DNA from: an uncultured Myxococcales bacterium
Lineage (GTDB): Bacteria > Myxococcota_A > UBA9042 > CAIXZC01
Assembly: GCA_964522395.1 (NCBI GenBank)
Contig: CAZFVN010000007.1
Location: 25 to 64,024, forward strand
Reading direction: 5' to 3'
DNA: 64,000 nt
Positions within the stretch are counted from its first letter, which is position 1. Each line of letters opens with the position of its first letter. The notes below the pieces were generated by a model. The model saw only the letters and a program-made list of their open reading frames with translations. It did not search any database and was not told the DNA's origin. Shown piece after piece: positions 20,886 to 30,312 of the stretch. Position numbers and translations under genes: made by a program.

Positions 20886-22880
20886 GTGATGGATTCATCG
20901 CCGCAAAAGAGACTTTTTGGCGATGGAATTCTGGCTCGTGAGGCTGGTTTTGATGACGCCGAAGTGACCGTGCCCGACAACCTGCCTTCGCTCGCCGTGG
21001 GGAGCGTTTGGGATGGGCCCGTGGGGGCGCTGCTCTTCGCTGTTGCGGGCCTCTTCTACTTGATTCACACGGGTCCAAATTCCTTTTGGCTCGATTCCGC
21101 TGAGTTTGTTACTACCGGACACGGAGTAGGAGTAGCTCACCCCCCCGGTACTCCGCTTTACGTGCTGTTCTCGGCTCTCTTCGCCCGCTTTCCCCTTGGT
21201 GCGGCCACTTTTCGACTTCACCTGATGAATGTTCTCATCGGTGCCGGAGCGGTTGTAGTTGTCTATCGTGTCGGGCTGTTGGTGGTGCGGCGTGCGGGGT
21301 TGTCAGGAGTACCCTCCCTGGTTGCGGCAACGAGTGTGGCAGCAGCAACTGCGCTCAACGCCGGGCTCTGGTTCCATGCAGTGCGGGCCGAAGTCTACGC
21401 CCTGAATATTCTCCTCTGCCTGGCCATCGTCTGGTGTACCTTGTTGTGGGAGGAGCGCCCGCAAGGCTCCCGTTATCTTCTGCTCATCGCCCTGCTGGGG
21501 GGCTTGGGGCTGGCCAATCACCACCTGCTTACGGGCCTGACCGGCCTGGTCTGCCTGGGCTACGCCGCGACCCACAAAGAGATGCGAAAGTGCTTGTTTT
21601 TCAGGTACCTGCCCGTTGCGGTGGCGCTCTTTGCCGGGGGACTGTTGACCTACCTGTATCTGCCTATTCGATCCGCCGATGGTTGGCGGATGTGGGGCGA
21701 TGCCGGTAGCCTTTCCGGCTTCCTGGAGATGGTCTCGGCACGCGCCTTCCACATTAGCGTAACCGATTCTCCCAAGGCTCCACTGATGGTGGCCCTCATA
21801 ACAATTTTCGACAGTTGGCTGGGGCTCATGGGCCTACCCCTCGTGGTGGCCTCTGTCGCCGGTCTCTGTGCCCTCCTGGCCATGCGCCGTCGGGAGGCCT
21901 TGCTCCTGCTCGGGCTTGCCCTGGCTGGTGCGCTCTCCAAGGCCATCATGTATCTGGACGTAGAGAACCCCGACGACCACGCCTATTTCCTCATCGGCAT
22001 GGTGGCCCTCTCTCTGGCTGCGGTCGGTCTGGCGGCCGCCCCACGTTGGCTGCGGCTGCGCGGGAGAGTGGCTCCCTGGCTCGGGGCAACCGTGGTGGCC
22101 GGAGTGGCGCTAGTGAACGTCTTCTTGCTCTATCAGGCCAACAATCAACGGTGCGACCTCTCCCGTTTTCACGGGCCAGACTCGCTCAATCGTCACTTCC
22201 ACGAGCGAGTGCCCCCCGATGCGCTCTTCATGCCCAGCTACTACGCGACCTTCTTCAACCACCTTCTCTTCCGCTCGGTGGAGCAGCGGCGACCTGACCT
22301 TCTGATGGTACACCAATCCCTCTACTCAAGATTCGGCAAAGGAGTCGCCTACGCCGCAGACATCAGTAAGAAGCACCCTGACGCAGCCCCGCTTTTCGCC
22401 GAATTTCTCGAAGCGGGAGGATTCCCCCTCGAAGCTCTAGTCGAGTTGGCTCGATCGCGGGAGGTTCTCCTGGAAAACGATACCGTCGCCGTGACGCTGG
22501 ACGTCCCCTATTTGCAGCAGTTCACTCTGGGCGACGGCGGACTGCCGCTTGCGGCCGATGACCTGGCCTTCGACGGCCCCGGTGTGCTCTATAATGTCCC
22601 CCCACGAGTAGGCTGGAACGAAGGAGCACTCCAACAGGAGTTCTGGACCGGTTTCTACGAGGACCTGGGCACCGTTGGTGGAATCCACGCTGAGTTGTCA
22701 AAGCTCCTTGTCTGGTATCACTATCGCAACGCACTCTTCTTCGTTAACCGGCAGTCGCCCCGTCGCGCACTCCTCGAGGTGAAGCTTGCCCGACAGTTGA
22801 AACCTGACTTTGAGCGCCTGATTGAATTTGAAAACGCTCTAGTTTCGCCGCCAAGTGTAGAAAATATCATCACTCACTGA
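20886..22880 (+). CDS. DUF2723 / TMEM260-like multi-pass membrane protein (GT-C glycosyltransferase-like)
   Basis: FWLDSAEF, GVAHPPGTPLY, AEVYALN, GLGLANHHL, YLYLPIRS motifs; many TM helices; exact start uncertain. Confidence 0.75.
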   Translation: MMDSSPQKRLFGDGILAREAGFDDAEVTVPDNLPSLAVGSVWDGPVGALLFAVAGLFYLIHTGPNSFWLDSAEFVTTGHGVGVAHPPGTPLYVLFSALFARFPLGAATFRLHLMNVLIGAGAVVVVYRVGLLVVRRAGLSGVPSLVAATSVAAATALNAGLWFHAVRAEVYALNILLCLAIVWCTLLWEERPQGSRYLLLIALLGGLGLANHHLLTGLTGLVCLGYAATHKEMRKCLFFRYLPVAVALFAGGLLTYLYLPIRSADGWRMWGDAGSLSGFLEMVSARAFHISVTDSPKAPLMVALITIFDSWLGLMGLPLVVASVAGLCALLAMRRREALLLLGLALAGALSKAIMYLDVENPDDHAYFLIGMVALSLAAVGLAAAPRWLRLRGRVAPWLGATVVAGVALVNVFLLYQANNQRCDLSRFHGPDSLNRHFHERVPPDALFMPSYYATFFNHLLFRSVEQRRPDLLMVHQSLYSRFGKGVAYAADISKKHPDAAPLFAEFLEAGGFPLEALVELARSREVLLENDTVAVTLDVPYLQQFTLGDGGLPLAADDLAFDGPGVLYNVPPRVGWNEGALQQEFWTGFYEDLGTVGGIHAELSKLLVWYHYRNALFFVNRQSPRRALLEVKLARQLKPDFERLIEFENALVSPPSVENIITH

Positions 22881-22956
22881 TCTGCGTGTCTTGATTGTGG
22901 CTTGAAATTGTCCCCTGATTGGCCCATTGAGGGTCGCAAGTGCGCATCCATGGCCG

Positions 22957-22973
22957 TTGGCACGGGCTTTGCT
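22957..22973 (+). promoter_or_regulatory. sigma54 (-24/-12) promoter
   Basis: TTGGCACGGGCTTTGCT matches YTGGCACGRNNNTTGCW; GG 22959-60 and GC 22971-72 are exactly 10 bp apart. Confidence 0.8.
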
Positions 22974-22983
22974 TTAGAGAGAA

Positions 22984-23117
22984 GACAGGTTTGACAATTG
23001 AACACGTTTCGGAGGTGCCCCTCCTTCCAGCCTTCGAAACGCTTCCTCCTTCCAAGGTGAGATTGCGACCTAGCTACCGAGGGCCGAGAGCGGCAACGTT
23101 CTCGGCCCTCACCTTTT
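22984..23117 (+). ncRNA. Candidate sigma54-dependent small RNA with duplicated C-rich motifs
   Basis: Lies between the sigma54 promoter and a terminator; 11-bp stem 23005-23015/23031-23041 with C/U loop; CCTCCTTCCA at 23020-29 and 23045-54; no ATG-started ORF. Confidence 0.6.
23079..23117 (+). terminator. Rho-independent terminator
   Basis: 14-bp stem GAGGGCCGAGAGCG/CGTTCTCGGCCCTC with GCAA tetraloop, followed by ACCTTTT. Confidence 0.75.
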
Positions 23118-23125
23118 AAAGGCAA

Positions 23126-23893
23126 TCAGATTTCGCCTTCCACTGAACCGGTCACAAACTGGCGCACCACAGAATCATTGCTGTCGAAGAAGTCGTCCGC
23201 TGAACCGTGAAAACGGACCCGGCCATCAAAGAGGAAGAGCACGTCGTCCGCCAGGCGCCGGATAGAGCGCAGGTCATGCGAGATTATCAGTAGGGTTACA
23301 CCGGTCTCCAGGAGAACCTCAACTTGCTGGTCCAACTTGTAGGCGGCATTTGGGTCAAGCCCGGTGGTCGGTTCGTCGAGAATCAGCACGTCTGGCTCCA
23401 GAGCCAGGGCGCGGGCCAGCGAGACCAGCTTCTGATCCCCGGATGGGAGGCGTGTGGGCTTGCTTCGAGTGACACGACCCAGGCCCATCTTCACGAGCTG
23501 GTCGTTAGCCTTGACCTCGGCCGCCTCCGGCGTGAGGCCGAGGTGGTACTTCATCACCACCGCAACGTTTTCGGAAACCGTCATGGAATCGAAAAGGGTG
23601 GGGTGCTGGAAAACATAGACACATCTCTTGCGCAGTTCGAGCAACTCCTCTTCCGACAGGAGATCAACCCGATTCTTGCCGAGGTAAACCTCGCCGCGAT
23701 CGGGCTGTAGCAACCCCACCAGGTGCCTTACCAGGACACTCTTCCCGGTGCCCGACGGGCCAGCGACGAATGAGCATCTGCCCGCTGGAAATGTGGCGTC
23801 GACTCCGCGCAATACGTGGTTATCTCCGAAAGATTTCTCCAGCCCAACGATTCGGGCAGCGGGTATCGTTGACCCGGTTCTCTTGCCACTCAT
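23126..23893 (-). CDS. MlaF-like ABC ATPase (degenerate signature motif)
   Basis: Walker A GPSGTGKS, FQ Q-loop, signature LPSGD, Walker B LILDE, SHD switch. Confidence 0.85.
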   Translation of the reverse strand: MSGKRTGSTIPAARIVGLEKSFGDNHVLRGVDATFPAGRCSFVAGPSGTGKSVLVRHLVGLLQPDRGEVYLGKNRVDLLSEEELLELRKRCVYVFQHPTLFDSMTVSENVAVVMKYHLGLTPEAAEVKANDQLVKMGLGRVTRSKPTRLPSGDQKLVSLARALALEPDVLILDEPTTGLDPNAAYKLDQQVEVLLETGVTLLIISHDLRSIRRLADDVLFLFDGRVRFHGSADDFFDSNDSVVRQFVTGSVEGEI

Positions 23894-24621
23894 AAGAGCA
23901 CCTCGCCGACATAGGAGAGGATGGCATCAAGGAGGATTACTGCGAACGATGAGATGACTACGGCTTTTGTCGTCGCCTGGCCAACTCCCTCGGAGCCCTC
24001 GTCGGCTTCGAAACCACAGGCGCAACTGACCAGCGGCACCGTGAAACCGAAAGTGACGCTCTTGGCGATCCCAATCAGCAAGTCCCCTTCGCGTACGAAT
24101 CTCAGGGAGAGGTAGGTGTCGGGCAGAATGGAGAAACCGAACCACGCCACCAACATGCCCACAAAATAGGCGATTGCGGTGCCGAGTGCGGCCAGGGCGA
24201 CCCCGGCCAGGGTTGCGGCAATCAGCCGCGGCAGCACGAGCAACTCGATAGGGTCGACGGCGTTGAGTTTCATCGCCTCGAGCTGGTCGGTTACCTTCAT
24301 TGAGCCAAGCTCGGCGGCCATTCCTGTGCCCACTCGAGTGGCCAGCAGCAGGCCCGCCATTACCGGCCCCAGTTCACGAGTGAGGCCCTGCAAGACGGCC
24401 CCGCCCAGGGTGGAGTATTCCGGTAGTACCCGCGCCATGGTCGAGGCCAATTGGTAGACACCGATCATGCCGATGAAGGCCATTGTAACGGAGACGAAGA
24501 GAACCGAGCGGTTGCCCGCCTCATAGAACTGACGGAGGATTTCACGGGGCTTGACGCGCAAGCGGACCAACGACCAGAGCGAAAGGGAAAAAAGTTCGAA
24601 CATGCGGTAATAGAGCGTCAC
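23890..24621 (-). CDS. MlaE-family ABC permease
   Basis: RELGPVMAGLLLATRVGTGMAAELGSMKVTDQLEA..LVLPR; GVGQATTKAVV. Confidence 0.88.
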   Translation of the reverse strand: MTLYYRMFELFSLSLWSLVRLRVKPREILRQFYEAGNRSVLFVSVTMAFIGMIGVYQLASTMARVLPEYSTLGGAVLQGLTRELGPVMAGLLLATRVGTGMAAELGSMKVTDQLEAMKLNAVDPIELLVLPRLIAATLAGVALAALGTAIAYFVGMLVAWFGFSILPDTYLSLRFVREGDLLIGIAKSVTFGFTVPLVSCACGFEADEGSEGVGQATTKAVVISSFAVILLDAILSYVGEVLL

Positions 24622-24625
24622 TCGA

Positions 24626-25408
24626 CTATCCGTACACGATGTTGATCCAGGCCCAGGTGATAATATAATCAGAGACGAAGATGCCTAGCGCGGTGGCCAC
24701 GACGCAACCATTGACGGCGTTGCCAACTCCCCGTGCGCCGCCCCGAACCGCCAGCCCGTAAGTAGTACTGCAAATAGAGATGACGATGCCGAAGAAGAAT
24801 GCCTTCACGAGGCCCGCGATGAACGCATCAAGAAGCTCAGCCTCCAGCAGACCCGCGACGAATGTCCGCCAATCAATTCCCAGGAGCCAATGGGCCGTGG
24901 AGGCCCCGCCGATGATGCCGAATAGATCGCCGACTAGCGTCAATGCCACCAGGGAAATGCAGATGGCGACGAAGCGGGGGGCCACCAAGAACTTCACCGG
25001 GTCGATAGCCAGTGCGCGTAGCGCATCGATTTGTTCCGAAACCACCATATTACCGAGCTCTGCTGCGGCGTTGGCGCCGACACGACCAGAGAACATCAGT
25101 CCGATGAGAGTTGGACCCAACTCCGCCAGTACCGCCAGGCCGGAGCCAGAGCCGACAAAGGAAGTGGCTCCAGTGGCCCGCACGTAGCTCATTGTCTGGA
25201 GTACCATGATAACCCCTACGAGAAAGGCGGTAAGGGTGACGATGGGCAGGGAAAGAAAGCCGATGCGATAGAGCTGGCGCCAAACCTCAGCGCCGTCGAG
25301 ACGGGGTGGAATCAGTGCTCTAACGACGCGATAGAAGGTGATATTGAGGGCCCCCAGGATCTCCAGAGTAGCCAGAACTTCCCGGCCGATGGCAGCGAAC
25401 AGTCTCAC
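24626..25408 (-). CDS. MlaE-family ABC permease
   Basis: ELGPTLIGLMFSGRVGANAAAELGNMVVSEQIDALRALAIDP..LVAPR; GVGNAVNGCVV. Confidence 0.88.
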   Translation of the reverse strand: MRLFAAIGREVLATLEILGALNITFYRVVRALIPPRLDGAEVWRQLYRIGFLSLPIVTLTAFLVGVIMVLQTMSYVRATGATSFVGSGSGLAVLAELGPTLIGLMFSGRVGANAAAELGNMVVSEQIDALRALAIDPVKFLVAPRFVAICISLVALTLVGDLFGIIGGASTAHWLLGIDWRTFVAGLLEAELLDAFIAGLVKAFFFGIVISICSTTYGLAVRGGARGVGNAVNGCVVATALGIFVSDYIITWAWINIVYG

Positions 25409-26181
25409 GACCCTTGAACCTCCCGCTGCGGCTCAGTCGCGGCGAAGACAAAATCCCGGATGACCGGGCGCGCACAGTCATATACCTCTTCCTGGAGTCC
25501 GTCATAGAGAACCTGGCCGTCAAATAGACCGACGAGGCGAGTCACGACTGGAAAGAGACGCTGCAGGTCGTGGGTGGCGATTACCACCAATGAATGCGCC
25601 TCCTCTGCATAGGCAGAGAGCATTCGCATGATCTTCGCTGAGTTTACCGGGTCAAGTCCGGCAACCGGGTCATCAAAGAACGCGATGTCGGGGCGAGCAG
25701 CCATTACTCGGGCGATGGCCACTCGGCGCCTCATACCGCCCGAAAGCGCCTCGGGCGACGTCCCCTGGGTGCCGTCCATACCCACTTTGGCGAGAACCTC
25801 CGCTACCCTCTGGTCCACCTCGTGTGCCGGCATCGTGGAGCCCTGGTCGAGGGAGAATCCCACGTTCTCCCGGACGTTCAGAAAGTCGAAGAGAGCGAAG
25901 TTTTGAAACTGCAAACTGATGCGGGCACGGGCTGCCGCCAGGACTCTGCGGTTGAGACGTGAGATACGTTCACCGAATAGTTCAATCGAGCCTCGTTGCG
26001 GAAAGCGTAGAGTGGCCATGGATTTGAGGAGCTGCGTTTTGCCACTTCCACCGGGGCCAAAGAGCCCTACTACTTCGCCGGGGTCAAAGGAGAGCGTGAC
26101 ATCGTCCAGCACGATGCGCCGACCATAGCGAAGAGTTACGCCGTCGAGACGGACCAGATGGGAGTCCGGAATCGTGTCCAA
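25405..26181 (-). CDS. MlaF-like ABC ATPase (Walker B catalytic Glu replaced by Asp)
   Basis: Walker A GPGGSGKT, FQ Q-loop, signature LSGGM, Walker B AFFDD, THD switch. Confidence 0.85.
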   Translation of the reverse strand: MDTIPDSHLVRLDGVTLRYGRRIVLDDVTLSFDPGEVVGLFGPGGSGKTQLLKSMATLRFPQRGSIELFGERISRLNRRVLAAARARISLQFQNFALFDFLNVRENVGFSLDQGSTMPAHEVDQRVAEVLAKVGMDGTQGTSPEALSGGMRRRVAIARVMAARPDIAFFDDPVAGLDPVNSAKIMRMLSAYAEEAHSLVVIATHDLQRLFPVVTRLVGLFDGQVLYDGLQEEVYDCARPVIRDFVFAATEPQREVQGS

Positions 26182-26191
26182 GTTGCCTCCC

Positions 26192-27856
26192 TTAGATCTC
26201 GATGATCTCCTTGAAGCGGCCGAAGACTTTGGTCAGGGCCCCAGAGATTTCACCGACTGTCGCTCCAGCGCGCACCGCGGCAACCATCGGCGGCATCAGA
26301 TTGTCGTCACTCCTGGCCGCGGCGACGACTGTGCTCAGCGCAGCCTCGAGTGCCGTGGCATCACGCGCCTCCTTGAAACGGTGAAGGCGTGTTCGCTGGT
26401 CCTCTTCAACCGCTCGGTCAACCTTCAGGATGTCACTCGGTGGTTCCTGCTTAGCAGCGAATTTGTTGACTCCTACAACGATTGCCTCGTTGTCTTCCAC
26501 CTGCCGCTGGAAGCGGTATGAGGTATCAGAGATCTCCTTCTTCACAAAGCCTGACTCAATAGCCCGCAGCATGCCGCCCATATTGTCGATGCGCTCGATC
26601 ATGGCAGTTGCCTGGGCATCGATGTGGTCCGTGAGTGCCTCCACCGCGTAGCTACCGCCGAGGGGGTCAACGAAGTCTGCCACTGAGCTTTCGTGGCCAA
26701 TAATCTGTTGCGTACGCAGGGCGATGGTAACCGCTTCCTGGGTAGGCAAGGAGAGGGCTTCGTCGTAGCTGTTGGTGTGTAACGACTGGGTGCCGCCCAG
26801 GACCGAGGCGAGGGCTTGGAGGGTAACTCTTACGATATTGTTCATGGGCTGCTGCGCGGTGAGGGTGCACCCCCCCGTCTGAGTGTGGAACCGCAGCAAC
26901 ATGCTACGGGGGCTCTTGGCCCCGAACCGCTCCTTCATGATGGTTGCCCAGAGCCGTCGCGCAGCACGAAACTTCGCCACTTCTTCGAGGAAATTATTGG
27001 AGACGCTGAAGAAGAAGGCCAATCGGCCGGCGAATTGGTCGACGTCGAGGCCTTTCTTAATCGCGGCATCGACGTAGGCAATGCCATCGGCCAGGGTGAA
27101 CGCAACCTCCTGGACAGCATCGGCTCCTGCTTCCCGGATGTGGTAGCCAGAAATGGAAATCGTGTTCCACTTCGGCACCTCTTTGGAGCAGAAATCGAAG
27201 ATGTCGGTGATGATGCGGAGGGAGGGCTCAGGCGGAAAAATGTAAGTGCCGCGGGCGATATACTCTTTAAGCACGTCGTTTTGGATGGTGCCGTTGAGCT
27301 GCTCTCTGCCAATTCCCCTCTCCTCCGCTACCGCCACGTAGAGTGCCAGCAAGACTGCGGCGGTCGAGTTGATGGTCATGGACGTCGAGACCTTGTCCAA
27401 GGGGATCTGGTCGAAGAGAATGCGCATGTCTTCGATGGAGTCGATGGCAACCCCAACCTTGCCCACTTCCCCCTGGGAGAGCGGATGGTCTGAGTCGTAT
27501 CCCATTTGTGTCGGCAGGTCGAAGGCAACGCTCAGCCCTGTCTGACCCTGGTCAAGCAGGTAGCGGTACCGCAGGTTGGATTCTGTCGCGGTTCCAAAGC
27601 CGGCGTATTGACGCATGGTCCACATACGTCCCCGGTGCATGTTGGGCTGAACGCCCCGGGTGTAGGGATGGCGACCAGGAAAACCGAGCTTGCCCTCGTA
27701 GTCAAAAGGCTCCTCAGGGTAGTAGAGAGGGTCAATCGTGCTGCCATCCGAGAGGCGAAAAGAGTCGCGACGAGGTGCGAATCTGGTTTCGGCCGGGTCC
27801 AGCACCTCTTCTTTCCATTGCTGGAAATCCTGTTGCAACTTCTCGTGGTCACTCAT
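26192..27856 (-). CDS. Methylmalonyl-CoA mutase, catalytic (large) subunit without B12-binding domain
   Basis: [17 protein letters not shown] (specificity Tyr), [55 protein letters not shown]; start moved to 27856 (ATGAGTGA overlap with upstream stop). Confidence 0.92.
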
Positions 27857-29240
27857 ATTGTTCGCTCCCTTCCTGTTTATCATCTGGTCCCCCACCCGTA
27901 GAGACGCGGTTCCGGCCCTGATGCTTGGCCGCATAGAGCGCCTGGTCCGCCCGGGTGACGAGGTCCATCGGTTCTAACATGTCCGCGGTCAGTTCAGCTA
28001 CTCCGACGCTGACCGAAAGGCATCCCTCGGGCTGTTCCGCGCCAAATGGAAATTCGTGGTAGGCGACCTTTCGGCGCAGGGCCTCGGCAACCAGCGCAGC
28101 CTCCTCAAGTCCCGTGTCGAGAAAGAGGACTGCGAATTCCTCGCCGCCGTAACGACAGGTGATGTCGGTCTGTCGGACCCGCTGGAGGAATAGCTTGGCC
28201 AGTTCACGGAGGACTTTGTCCCCCTCTGGATGACCCTGAGTATCGTTGTAGTGCTTGAAATGGTCAACGTCGATCATGGCAAAGGCCAGGGGTCTGTCAC
28301 CGCGGCGGGCCAGTTCGAAGTAGAAGGGTAGCGCTTCTTTGAGATGGCGCACATTGGGCAGCCCGGTTAGGGAATCGGTTCGGGCCAATTGCTCTAGCTG
28401 CGTGTTGGCGGCACGGAGCTTGGCCATCGTGGCGACCAGCTCTTCGTTCGCCTTGCCAAGCTCGTCGGTGCGTTCCAGGACCAACTCCTGCAGATCGTGG
28501 GTATGCCGCTCCAGCTCAGCAGTCATGGCGTCGAAACTCTGCCCCAGACGTGCCACCTCGCTGCTACCCTTCATGTGGACTCGTGCGGCGAGGTCGCCGC
28601 CGCGCACCGTGTCGGCGACGGAGGATAGCCGTAGAACCGGTCTCAAGAAGAGACGCTCCGCCATGAAGTAGAGGAGCAGAGCTGTGAGGAGGGCGAAGAT
28701 GAGCATGACTTTCATGGAACGCCAGATGAAGGTCTTCAGAATCTCGGCCTCCCCGGAGAGGTCGAGCTCCGCCGTGAGGGTCCCCCACCGGATACCGGGG
28801 AGCCCCTCCACTGATGTGCTCAAGGGATAGGCCATCCGCATGACACGATGGTCACCTTCCCGCAGATATTGGACTGCCGGGGTGTCCCCTTCGCTGGCGA
28901 GAATCTCAAAGGGGTCAGAGAGCAGTTTGCCGTACATGCTCTTTTCAGTGTGTCCCATGACTCTTCGCTGACGGTCCAGCACAGCTACTGAACGCACTCC
29001 AGCGGTAGCTGCCATTCGGATGTGGAATTCGTCAACCACCCGATCGAGCTCTTCGATGCGATTTTGCGCCAGGGCGGAGACGCACGGGGCAGACAATGCA
29101 GCCATGAGCACACGGGCCCGATTCTCCACCTCATCCGTATAGATCGTACGCTCGTGGTCAGCCACGTAGAAGGCCATGAGCAGCATGGACAGCAGGACCA
29201 TGGCAACGCCCGCGGCAAGGACTCTGACGCGAATGCTCAT
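27849..29240 (-). CDS. Membrane diguanylate cyclase (TM-periplasmic sensor-TM-HAMP-GGDEF)
   Basis: Two TM helices, HAMP ([27 protein letters not shown]), [21 protein letters not shown]-site RQTD, RYGGEEF. Confidence 0.92.
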
Positions 29241-30187
29241 AGGCCTGTCTCTGTCATCAGATCCAACTTCTCTCTGACCGGGTCATAGACCGCATCCCGA
29301 GTTGCAACCCAACCGCTGATCTCCAGGCCGCCGGTAAGCACCTTCCGGCCCTCCTCCGAGGCAGTGTTGAGATGTGCTAGAGCTTCCTTGATTGCCCCAG
29401 CTACTCCGGGAGGCAGGCCCGGACGGGCGACTATTGCATCATGGGGAATACGGCCCGTGACGGCCAGCACTCGCAGATTCCCCACATCCAGCTTCATAGC
29501 CCGGGCTGGCCGCATGAAGGAAGAAAATGTGGCTGTGGCATCGACCTTGCCATCAAGGAGTAGCTTGATCGCGTTGAGGTGATCTCCGGCAAAGACAATT
29601 TCGCCAAAGAAGTCCTCTGCTTTCTCGTTGCGTTCGAGGAGAAAAGCTCTAGGAAAGAGGTAGCCTGAGGCTGATCCTGGAGCAGTGAACGCGAAGCGTT
29701 TGCCGCGTAAGTCCTCTACGCCGCTAACCGGGCTGTCGGCCCGGGATACCAGGTATCCGGAGTAGCTGACAGACCCAAAGGAAACCTGGGTCAAAAGGAG
29801 TTGCATGCAAGGCATGCGCTTGCGTGCCTGTACGTAGGAGAGGGGCGAAAGAGAGGCGAGATCGACTTTCCCCTCAGCCAGGTCGTCAACCAGCCCTGTG
29901 TAGCTGGTGCCCGGGACCTCCTCAAAGAGATAGCCGGTGCGTTCGCTCAGGTAACCTAGAATTGGTTCGAAATTCTGCGAAAGTAGATCGGTGTCAAGGT
30001 ATGGTGTAACTCCAAATCTAATCACCGTGGGGACAACTTTGTCAGCCTCGCAGGAGGCTGGTCTAGAGCTCTCCTCGACCTTGCTCCTCCGGGCCTCGTC
30101 CAGCGGTCGTGGAGCTGTGGATTCTTGACCGCAGGCAGCGACCAGCAACAATGCCATCACCGCAATCACCCTGCCACCCGACGCCAT
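29237..30187 (-). CDS. PhnD/PtxB-family substrate-binding lipoprotein
   Basis: Lipobox LVAAC; IRFGVTPY, DLRGKRFAF..SASGYLFP, GDHLNAI..GKVDA, IPHDAIVAR; start 30187 preferred (ORF can extend to 30304 through the repeats); ATGA overlap with the cyclase. Confidence 0.82.
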   Translation of the reverse strand: MASGGRVIAVMALLLVAACGQESTAPRPLDEARRSKVEESSRPASCEADKVVPTVIRFGVTPYLDTDLLSQNFEPILGYLSERTGYLFEEVPGTSYTGLVDDLAEGKVDLASLSPLSYVQARKRMPCMQLLLTQVSFGSVSYSGYLVSRADSPVSGVEDLRGKRFAFTAPGSASGYLFPRAFLLERNEKAEDFFGEIVFAGDHLNAIKLLLDGKVDATATFSSFMRPARAMKLDVGNLRVLAVTGRIPHDAIVARPGLPPGVAGAIKEALAHLNTASEEGRKVLTGGLEISGWVATRDAVYDPVREKLDLMTETGL

Positions 30188-30270
30188 CCCCGCAATCCAT
30201 TGGTCACCGTACGTCATCCCGGCTATCCATTGGTCACGGTATGCTATCCCCGCGGTCCATTGGTCACATG
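30181..30270. repeat. Three tandem 30-bp repeats over the start of the PhnD-like gene
   Basis: Core TCCATTGGTCAC at 30196, 30226 and 30256 (period exactly 30); in frame encodes DQW(T/I)AG(I/M)xx. Confidence 0.9.
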
Positions 30271-30312
30271 ATCTTATGCTCGGAAAAGCCTGCCGTCCCA
30301 TCAAAAAACTCG

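Follow-up and report, generated by a model that had tools for sequence, protein, structure and literature searches.

A 64,000-nucleotide stretch of DNA from an uncultured Myxococcales bacterium (contig CAZFVN010000007.1 of assembly GCA_964522395.1, positions 25 to 64,024; hereafter the window) carries on its minus strand four closely packed genes for an ATP-binding cassette (ABC) transporter of the Mla/MCE type. Two of them encode permeases of the MlaE family, here named E1 and E2, and two encode ATPases of the MlaF family, F1 and F2 (ATPase A and ATPase B, respectively, in an earlier note on this DNA). Read along that strand, the order is: F1 (25405..26181; 258 residues), the predicted degenerate-site ATPase; E1 (24626..25408; 260 residues); E2 (23890..24621; 243 residues); and F2 (23126..23893; 255 residues), the predicted catalytic ATPase of the consensus site. 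The F1 start codon is TTG, with the Shine-Dalgarno sequence GGGAGG ahead of it. The GTG start of E1 overlaps the F1 stop (GTGA), a gap of 4 nucleotides separates E1 from E2, and the ATG start of F2 overlaps the E2 stop (ATGA). These overlapping or nearly abutting stops and starts suggest coupled, equimolar expression, and the F1-E1-E2-F2 arrangement suggests one translationally coupled operon. The host genome is a metagenome-assembled genome (MAG) of 5.35 Mb, 88% complete; its habitat, judged from the sequencing runs that contain the stretch, is marine.

All four proteins belong to known families, as divergent members. E1 and E2 have the MlaE domain according to Pfam PF02405 (212 bits, E 7.8e-63, and 203 bits, E 6.5e-60, respectively; cut-off 22.5), and score 186 and 176 against the NCBIfam MlaE subfamily cut-off of 212 (TIGR00056 also served as a family criterion). 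F1 and F2 both match Pfam ABC_tran; their NCBIfam MlaF scores, 136 and 140 bits, fall far short of the equivalog cut-off of 441. It is these scores below the NCBIfam cut-offs that mark the four as divergent. MlaF and MceG nonetheless are among the best PDB sequence matches for both ATPases. Within the window's genome, the paralogues share little sequence: identity is 31% between the two permeases and 29% between the two ATPases.

The two ATPases carry different defects. In F1, the Walker A motif (GPGGSGKT, 26035-26058), the Q-loop (LQFQN), the ABC signature (LSGGM, 25732..25746), the D-loop (AGLD), and the H-loop (ATHD) accompany a Walker B motif, AFFDDP (25666..25683), in which aspartate D171 (codon GAC, 25669-25671) takes the place of the catalytic glutamate. 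In F2, the Walker B motif is LILDEP (23369..23386), with the catalytic glutamate E174 intact, and the signature is the degenerate LPSGD (23435..23449); Walker A is GPSGTGKS, the Q-loop YVFQH, the D-loop TGLD, and the H-loop ISHD, with switch histidine H206. All of these motifs are encoded on the minus strand and were read directly from the DNA. Alignment with the two canonical MlaF paralogues of the same genome places F1 D171 in the catalytic-glutamate column, and F2 LPSGD, free of gaps, on the LSGGM columns. The F2 alignment further shows that F2 keeps a carboxyl-terminal tail of the QFxxGxxxGP type, which we take to be a canonical MlaF motif. Thus, the pair displays both hallmarks of a degenerate site: a catalytic residue altered in F1 only, and a non-consensus signature in its partner F2.

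ABC nucleotide-binding domains (NBDs) dimerize head to tail, so that each ATP site is composed of the Walker A, Walker B, and H-loop elements of one domain and the signature of the other. In a head-to-tail F1-F2 dimer, the F1 and F2 lesions therefore would share one composite site. By the same logic, both sites would be impaired in an F1-F1 or F2-F2 homodimer, and a consensus site would arise in the heterodimer alone. The earlier note had described these motifs and had placed both lesions in one composite site, leaving the other as consensus. The motif readings and the alignment bear out the former; the latter agrees with the head-to-tail geometry and with the pattern across the family described below.

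A search with F2 led to nine other Myxococcales-labelled MAGs in which F1-E1-E2-F2 recurs, at 42-78% identity, and to one contig fragment carrying only the F2 end. An F1 orthologue is present in every one of the 13 genomes, from 7 genera, that make up the window's order. Every F1 read from the order (10 sequences) has FDDP, and every F2 read (8 sequences) has a signature without SGG. The class to which this order belongs has 107 genomes, 84 of them with an F1-type match. Across the phylum, 385 of 401 genomes match the F1 profile at E 1e-60, a threshold at which F1 and canonical MlaF are not separated; this search is taken qualitatively only, as showing two score tiers.

The main comparison set consists of 61 non-redundant F-E-E-F clusters from Myxococcota, 60 of which entered the counts of gene order. 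Beyond the window's order, regions of other families of its class and 80 loci found with the F1 profile extend the cluster to genomes and MAGs with the labels Kofleriaceae, Haliangiales, Polyangiales, Sandaracinaceae, Bradymonadales, Lujinxingiaceae, and Microvenator. Eleven canonical MlaF sequences served as controls: all have the xSGG[MQ] signature, and DEP is present in each of the ten in which Walker B was captured.

Throughout the main set, the lesions are complementary. On the F2 side, the signature lacks SGG (61 of 61 clusters), the Walker B glutamate is retained as DEP (61 of 61), the switch histidine is present (60 of 60), and the A-loop aromatic residue is phenylalanine (61 of 61); in F1 this last position is variable. 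On the F1 side, the signature is xSGG[MQ] in 60 of 61 clusters, and the hydrolytic residues are altered in one of two ways. Aspartate replaces the catalytic glutamate, with the histidine kept, in 36 clusters; the glutamate is kept and the switch histidine becomes serine in 23; and both changes occur together in two, as Asp plus Ser in one and Asp plus Gln at the switch histidine in the other (DDP overall, 38 of 61). The aspartate class comprises the window's class and Bradymonadia, and the serine class the Polyangia-type clusters, which mostly also have the Walker A sequence GPAASGKS. F2 signatures vary more widely: LPSGD, LPSGE, LPAGE, LSSGE, LSAGE, LSAGQ, VGPSE, IGDGL, LGDGL, FGDGM, LGDGM, and LSDGM. 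Those in the window's order (LPSGD, LSAGQ) are the least diverged of the family, as compared with the IGDGL, VGPSE, and FGDGM of relatives.

The earlier note held that orthologues with both DE and LSGG motifs would reduce the lesions to strain-specific drift. The clusters say otherwise: not one of the 61 F1 proteins keeps both the glutamate and the histidine, not one of the 61 F2 proteins has SGG, and the complementary lesions persist down to about 40% sequence identity. Two different F1 lesions, always opposite a degenerate F2 signature, point to selection on the degenerate site rather than drift. The conserved complementary pattern is the product of neither chance nor strain drift.

The F1 profile also recovered a stand-alone F1-like ATPase in MAGs of Bdellovibrionota (L204, 3504-4262; L162, 5974-6744; and others), in which Walker B reads YDDP and the LSGGM signature is intact. 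These loci, where no MlaE gene adjoins the ATPase, do not count as evidence for the four-gene system and were excluded. The L204 ATPase lies beside genes that, on sequence alone, resemble ABC genes of the phosphonate type (PhnD/PhnC/PhnE-like).

A maximum-likelihood tree of 26 F1 and 26 F2 sequences, with canonical MlaF and non-Mla ATPases, was evaluated by the Shimodaira-Hasegawa-like approximate likelihood-ratio test (SH-aLRT). F1 forms one clade (support 100) and F2 another (87), and together they group with canonical MlaF against the non-Mla ATPases (100). The F1 and F2 subtrees are congruent, in that the same seven genome groups appear in each; this match suggests that the two genes go back to one old duplication and have diverged in step ever since. 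F1 has evolved faster, with longer branches and a mean pairwise identity of 46% versus 57% for F2, as would be expected of a non-catalytic partner. The permeases are equally settled: the order is F1-E1-E2-F2 in 60 of 60 related clusters, and in each the E1-type permease adjoins F1, so that the E1 and E2 positions are fixed.

The window contains no MlaD/MCE gene. The earlier note had pointed this out and had supposed that the periplasmic partner is either encoded elsewhere or non-canonical. Searching the host genome identified three PF02470 genes, all outside the window. Two belong to canonical E-F-D clusters, on contigs C22 and C17. The third (contig C5, 37801-39030, plus strand; G000, locus L001) encodes a 409-residue MlaD (PF02470, 60 bits) with no MlaE or MlaF gene nearby; its neighbours are a cysteine-desulfurase-like gene, judged from sequence alone, and a gene for a protein of 1182 residues. 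The canonical C17 cluster has features of its own: its MlaE (C17:15819-17084, minus strand; 421 residues) has an amino-terminal extension of about 160 residues before the MlaE domain, and the cluster ends with a lipoprotein-like open reading frame of 207 residues.

Several lines of evidence connect the C5 protein with the four-gene cluster. Each of ten other cluster-holding genomes examined has a C5-type MlaD, which in one of them is the sole MlaD; in none of the ten does an MlaE or MlaF gene lie in the flanks read, which extend about 1.5 kb each way. In other families of the class, a C5-type MlaD gene directly follows F2 (L124, L127, L130, L133-L135, L137, L143) or adjoins the cluster on the other strand. 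In the MlaD tree, the orphans, ten in all, group together (99) as the sister clade (89) of the operon-encoded proteins, apart from the C17 and C22 types. The simplest reading of these sequences is an ancestral F1-E1-E2-F2-MlaD cluster, from which the MlaD gene was relocated in the window's order. The orphan C5 MlaD, as an orthologue of the operon-encoded MlaD of sister families, thereby fits the earlier note's suggestion of a partner encoded outside the window. The genes downstream of MlaD in the sister families revealed no further conserved component, except for a small outer-membrane-protein-like gene in Bradymonadia.

An AlphaFold2 monomer model of the C5 protein has a transmembrane helix and an MCE domain, and a tail of some 250 residues in long helices. 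The MCE domain has a predicted local distance difference test (pLDDT) score above 90, and the transmembrane helix is also confident; the tail is modelled with low confidence, and hence the model was used for architecture and not for geometry. In a fold comparison, the model matches Mce1B, Mce1F, and Mce1C best and MlaD less well. A carboxyl-terminal motif, G-x-G-T-x-G-x-L-x-x-D-x-E-x-Y-D-D...K-x-x-P-W-K-x-x-W-K-E, is nearly invariant in the Myxococcota orthologues. As for the accessory proteins of the proteobacterial Mla pathway, the host genome (88% complete) has no match to MlaA (PF04333), and a single MlaC-like match lies on an unrelated contig, C71; MlaB was not searched for. The lack of an MlaA match, together with one unlinked MlaC-like match, would fit an MCE system of the tube or bridge type better than the Escherichia coli shuttle pathway.

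Most lineages have one MCE gene per cluster. In Polyangia-type clusters (Kofleriaceae, Haliangiales), which have the His-to-Ser F1, two different MlaD genes often lie beside F-E-E-F (L148, L168, L169, L175, L180, L181, L196, L199, L200, and others). Such pairs suggest that asymmetry may reach the MCE ring. The Bradymonadia-type clusters contain an extra gene between E2 and F2 (L225, 3592-4254; L227, 8501-9295; L228, 8350-8994). Its product, of about 210 residues, has a signal peptide and ends in ...GFQYGF or ...IVWGF, resembling the carboxyl-terminal signal of outer-membrane beta-barrel proteins, and it may serve the transporter as an outer-membrane partner. The window's genome has no homologue of this gene.

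Together, these observations make it likely that the products of the four genes form an obligate F1F2-E1E2 complex, in which one ATP site is consensus and the other degenerate, and which works with an Mce1-like MCE protein. In the proposed model, an F1/F2 ATPase heterodimer would drive an E1/E2 permease heterodimer, giving the whole a pseudo-twofold asymmetry. Site 1, the degenerate site, would consist of the F1 Walker A, aspartate-bearing Walker B, and H-loop elements facing the LPSGD of F2. It probably binds ATP and stabilizes or regulates the dimer; hydrolysis there would be slow or nil. Site 2, the consensus site, would consist of the F2 Walker A, DE-bearing Walker B, and H-loop elements facing the LSGGM of F1, and hydrolysis at this site would power lipid movement. 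Presumably, the C5 MCE protein forms a hexameric ring or tube on E1E2, together with which the complex would move lipid between the membranes. We infer heterodimerization and the loss of hydrolysis from the sequences and by analogy with type IV exporters, and likewise infer the lipid substrate and the direction of transport.

Several considerations weigh against this proposal. The Glu-to-Asp substitution is conservative and can leave residual hydrolysis; the mild LSAGQ signature of F2 in some members of the window's order might allow site 1 to keep activity; the mirror order, F1-E1 followed by E2-F2, is also expected for two tandem half-systems; the partnership of C5 MlaD with the operon, presumed here, rests on orthology and co-occurrence, in a MAG that is 88% complete; and the sequencing runs that contain the stretch are of marine metagenome DNA only, with no RNA among them. 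The first two would suit a transporter in which F1F2-E1E2 forms but both sites hydrolyze ATP, the asymmetry then residing in subunit identity and serving, for example, an asymmetric substrate path. Such a transporter could draw on the carboxylate that aspartate retains, on the near-consensus F2 signatures in the window's order, and on the Walker A, Q-loop, and D-loop of F1, which are intact, as is its H-loop in the window's class. It is nevertheless unlikely. Most lineages have an F2 signature that diverges strongly from consensus, loss of the switch histidine replaces Glu-to-Asp in the Polyangia-type clusters, and F1 has both an unconserved A-loop aromatic position and a faster rate than F2. 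Moreover, the same lesions mark the impaired sites of characterized heterodimeric exporters (PMC9541285).

The mirror order could instead reflect two separate homodimeric transporters, F1(2)E1(2) and F2(2)E2(2), that arose by tandem duplication and use their own or a shared MCE protein. Each ATPase does adjoin one permease, and the ATPases of E. coli MlaFEDB and of Mce1 are homodimers (two identical chains in 6xbd and 8fed). This arrangement is quite improbable, however, since each homodimer would have two defective sites (Asp or Ser lesions in F1-F1, degenerate signatures in F2-F2). Nor does it sit well with four genes that never occur apart in 60 clusters, with ATPases that co-diverge and keep complementary lesions over so great a sequence distance, or with a single MCE gene per cluster in most lineages. 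There is also the question of whether the lesions simply reflect neutral drift or decay, in paralogues made redundant by the two complete canonical E-F-D systems (C17, C22) of the genome. This we regard as scarcely credible and reject, given the conservation of the lesions: the reading frames are intact, the lesions recur in all 61 clusters, the remaining motifs are invariant, and F1 is found throughout the order and in most genomes of the class.

The obligate asymmetric complex thus remains the favoured interpretation. We also lean, though only slightly, toward a more general view: a wholly asymmetric class of MCE lipid transporters, with F1/F2, E1/E2, and in some lineages D1/D2, that has a single catalytic site and a second site, structural or regulatory, permanently occupied by nucleotide. 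With the same slight preference, the scope of this class would take in the Polyangia-type lineages, Bradymonadia, and the uncultured marine class of the window, and would involve at least two different lesions.

Comparison with known systems highlights what is shared and what is not. The MlaFEDB complexes of E. coli, Acinetobacter baumannii, and Pseudomonas aeruginosa (6xbd, 7d06, 7ch8) likewise combine an MlaE-fold permease, an MlaF-family ATPase, and an MCE-domain subunit. However, they contain MlaE and MlaF homodimers with two consensus sites, whereas the present system has two paralogous permeases and two paralogous ATPases with a predicted degenerate site. MlaFEDB also has an MlaD of about 180 residues, MlaB, and MlaC/MlaA partners; here, the MCE protein has 409 residues, is unlinked, and has a long helical tail. 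Closer in some respects are Mce1 and Mce4 (YrbE-A/B, MceG, Mce A-F; 8fed, 8fef), which share the permease pair and MCE proteins in which a long helical region accompanies the transmembrane helix and the MCE domain. Those systems employ one MceG, as a homodimer whose sites are consensus, and their six different MCE proteins are encoded after YrbE-A/B; the present one has two dedicated ATPases with one MCE gene, or two in some Polyangia-type clusters. A homodimeric ATPase with two consensus sites is common to the solved Mla/MCE members, and the paralogous F1 and F2 depart from it.

The logic of one impaired composite site is instead that of PatAB, TM287/288, TAP1/2, and MsRv1273c/72c, the likeness being one of sequence on the present side. 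Two studies describe heterodimeric exporters in which the Walker B glutamate is replaced by aspartate, the H-loop histidine is lost, or both, opposite a non-consensus signature in the partner (PMC9541285; PMC12038006). The PatAB degenerate site, for example, has Asp for Glu in Walker B, Gln for His in the H-loop, and SAGQ for SGGQ in the signature (PMC9541285). Nevertheless, type IV exporters are fused half-transporters, each with a transmembrane domain and an NBD, of an unrelated transmembrane fold; here, separate NBDs would act on an MlaE-fold pair with an MCE assembly. LptB2FG and LolCDE, which extract envelope lipids or lipoproteins, also have two different membrane subunits; their ATPases, LptB and LolD, are homodimers with two consensus sites. 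Their transmembrane fold differs from that of MlaE.

In the literature searched, no account turned up of heterodimers between MlaF paralogues, or of an Mla/MCE system with a degenerate site; matches to "MlaF1/MlaF2" denote the protomers or the stoichiometry of a homodimer. A phylogenomic study of Mla mentions only "several duplications" of MlaDE in Gracilicutes (PMC10665443). A motor with one competent site, familiar from drug exporters, thus appears to be undescribed for the Mla/MCE class, to which the sequences assign the present system.

The surroundings of the operon are in part conserved. Directly upstream, on the same strand, a gene of the methylmalonyl-CoA-mutase family (26192..27934, minus strand; PF01642, E 3.6e-227) encodes a catalytic subunit of 580 residues and ends 10 nucleotides before the F1 start. 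It occupies this position in all nine loci from the window's order (L008, L009, L011-L016, L033), and is absent from it among the loci read from other families. The mutase gene and the transporter genes may share a transcript; any connection with acyl-CoA metabolism, or with that of odd- or branched-chain lipids, is speculation. Upstream of the mutase gene are genes for a PhnD-like binding protein and a GGDEF cyclase (27849-30304, minus strand), which keep that position in four related loci (L008, L009, L011, L014). On the other side, a gap (22880-23119) directly downstream of F2 precedes a convergent TMEM260-like gene. The window's variant of the transporter is therefore distinguished by three traits: an MCE gene lost from the operon, a mutase gene upstream, and the least-diverged F2 signature.

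It is still disputed how Mla/MCE machines couple ATP turnover to the movement of lipids, and in which direction the lipids travel. If the proposed asymmetry is correct, a single hydrolytic site, and hence one ATP per cycle, would suffice for an MlaE-fold transporter, and the degenerate site could set the direction or the rate of transport. The direction and energy coupling of Mla-type transport would then be testable in a natural single-site system, whose asymmetric complex would be ready at hand for structural and mechanistic studies. An unrelated ABC architecture would likewise come under the degenerate-site principle of type IV exporters. For the Myxococcota, a phylum known for predation and complex envelopes, the near-universal occurrence of the family in the window's class, judged by F1-type matches, implies that the transporter probably serves a core function there, in the envelope or in lipid uptake.

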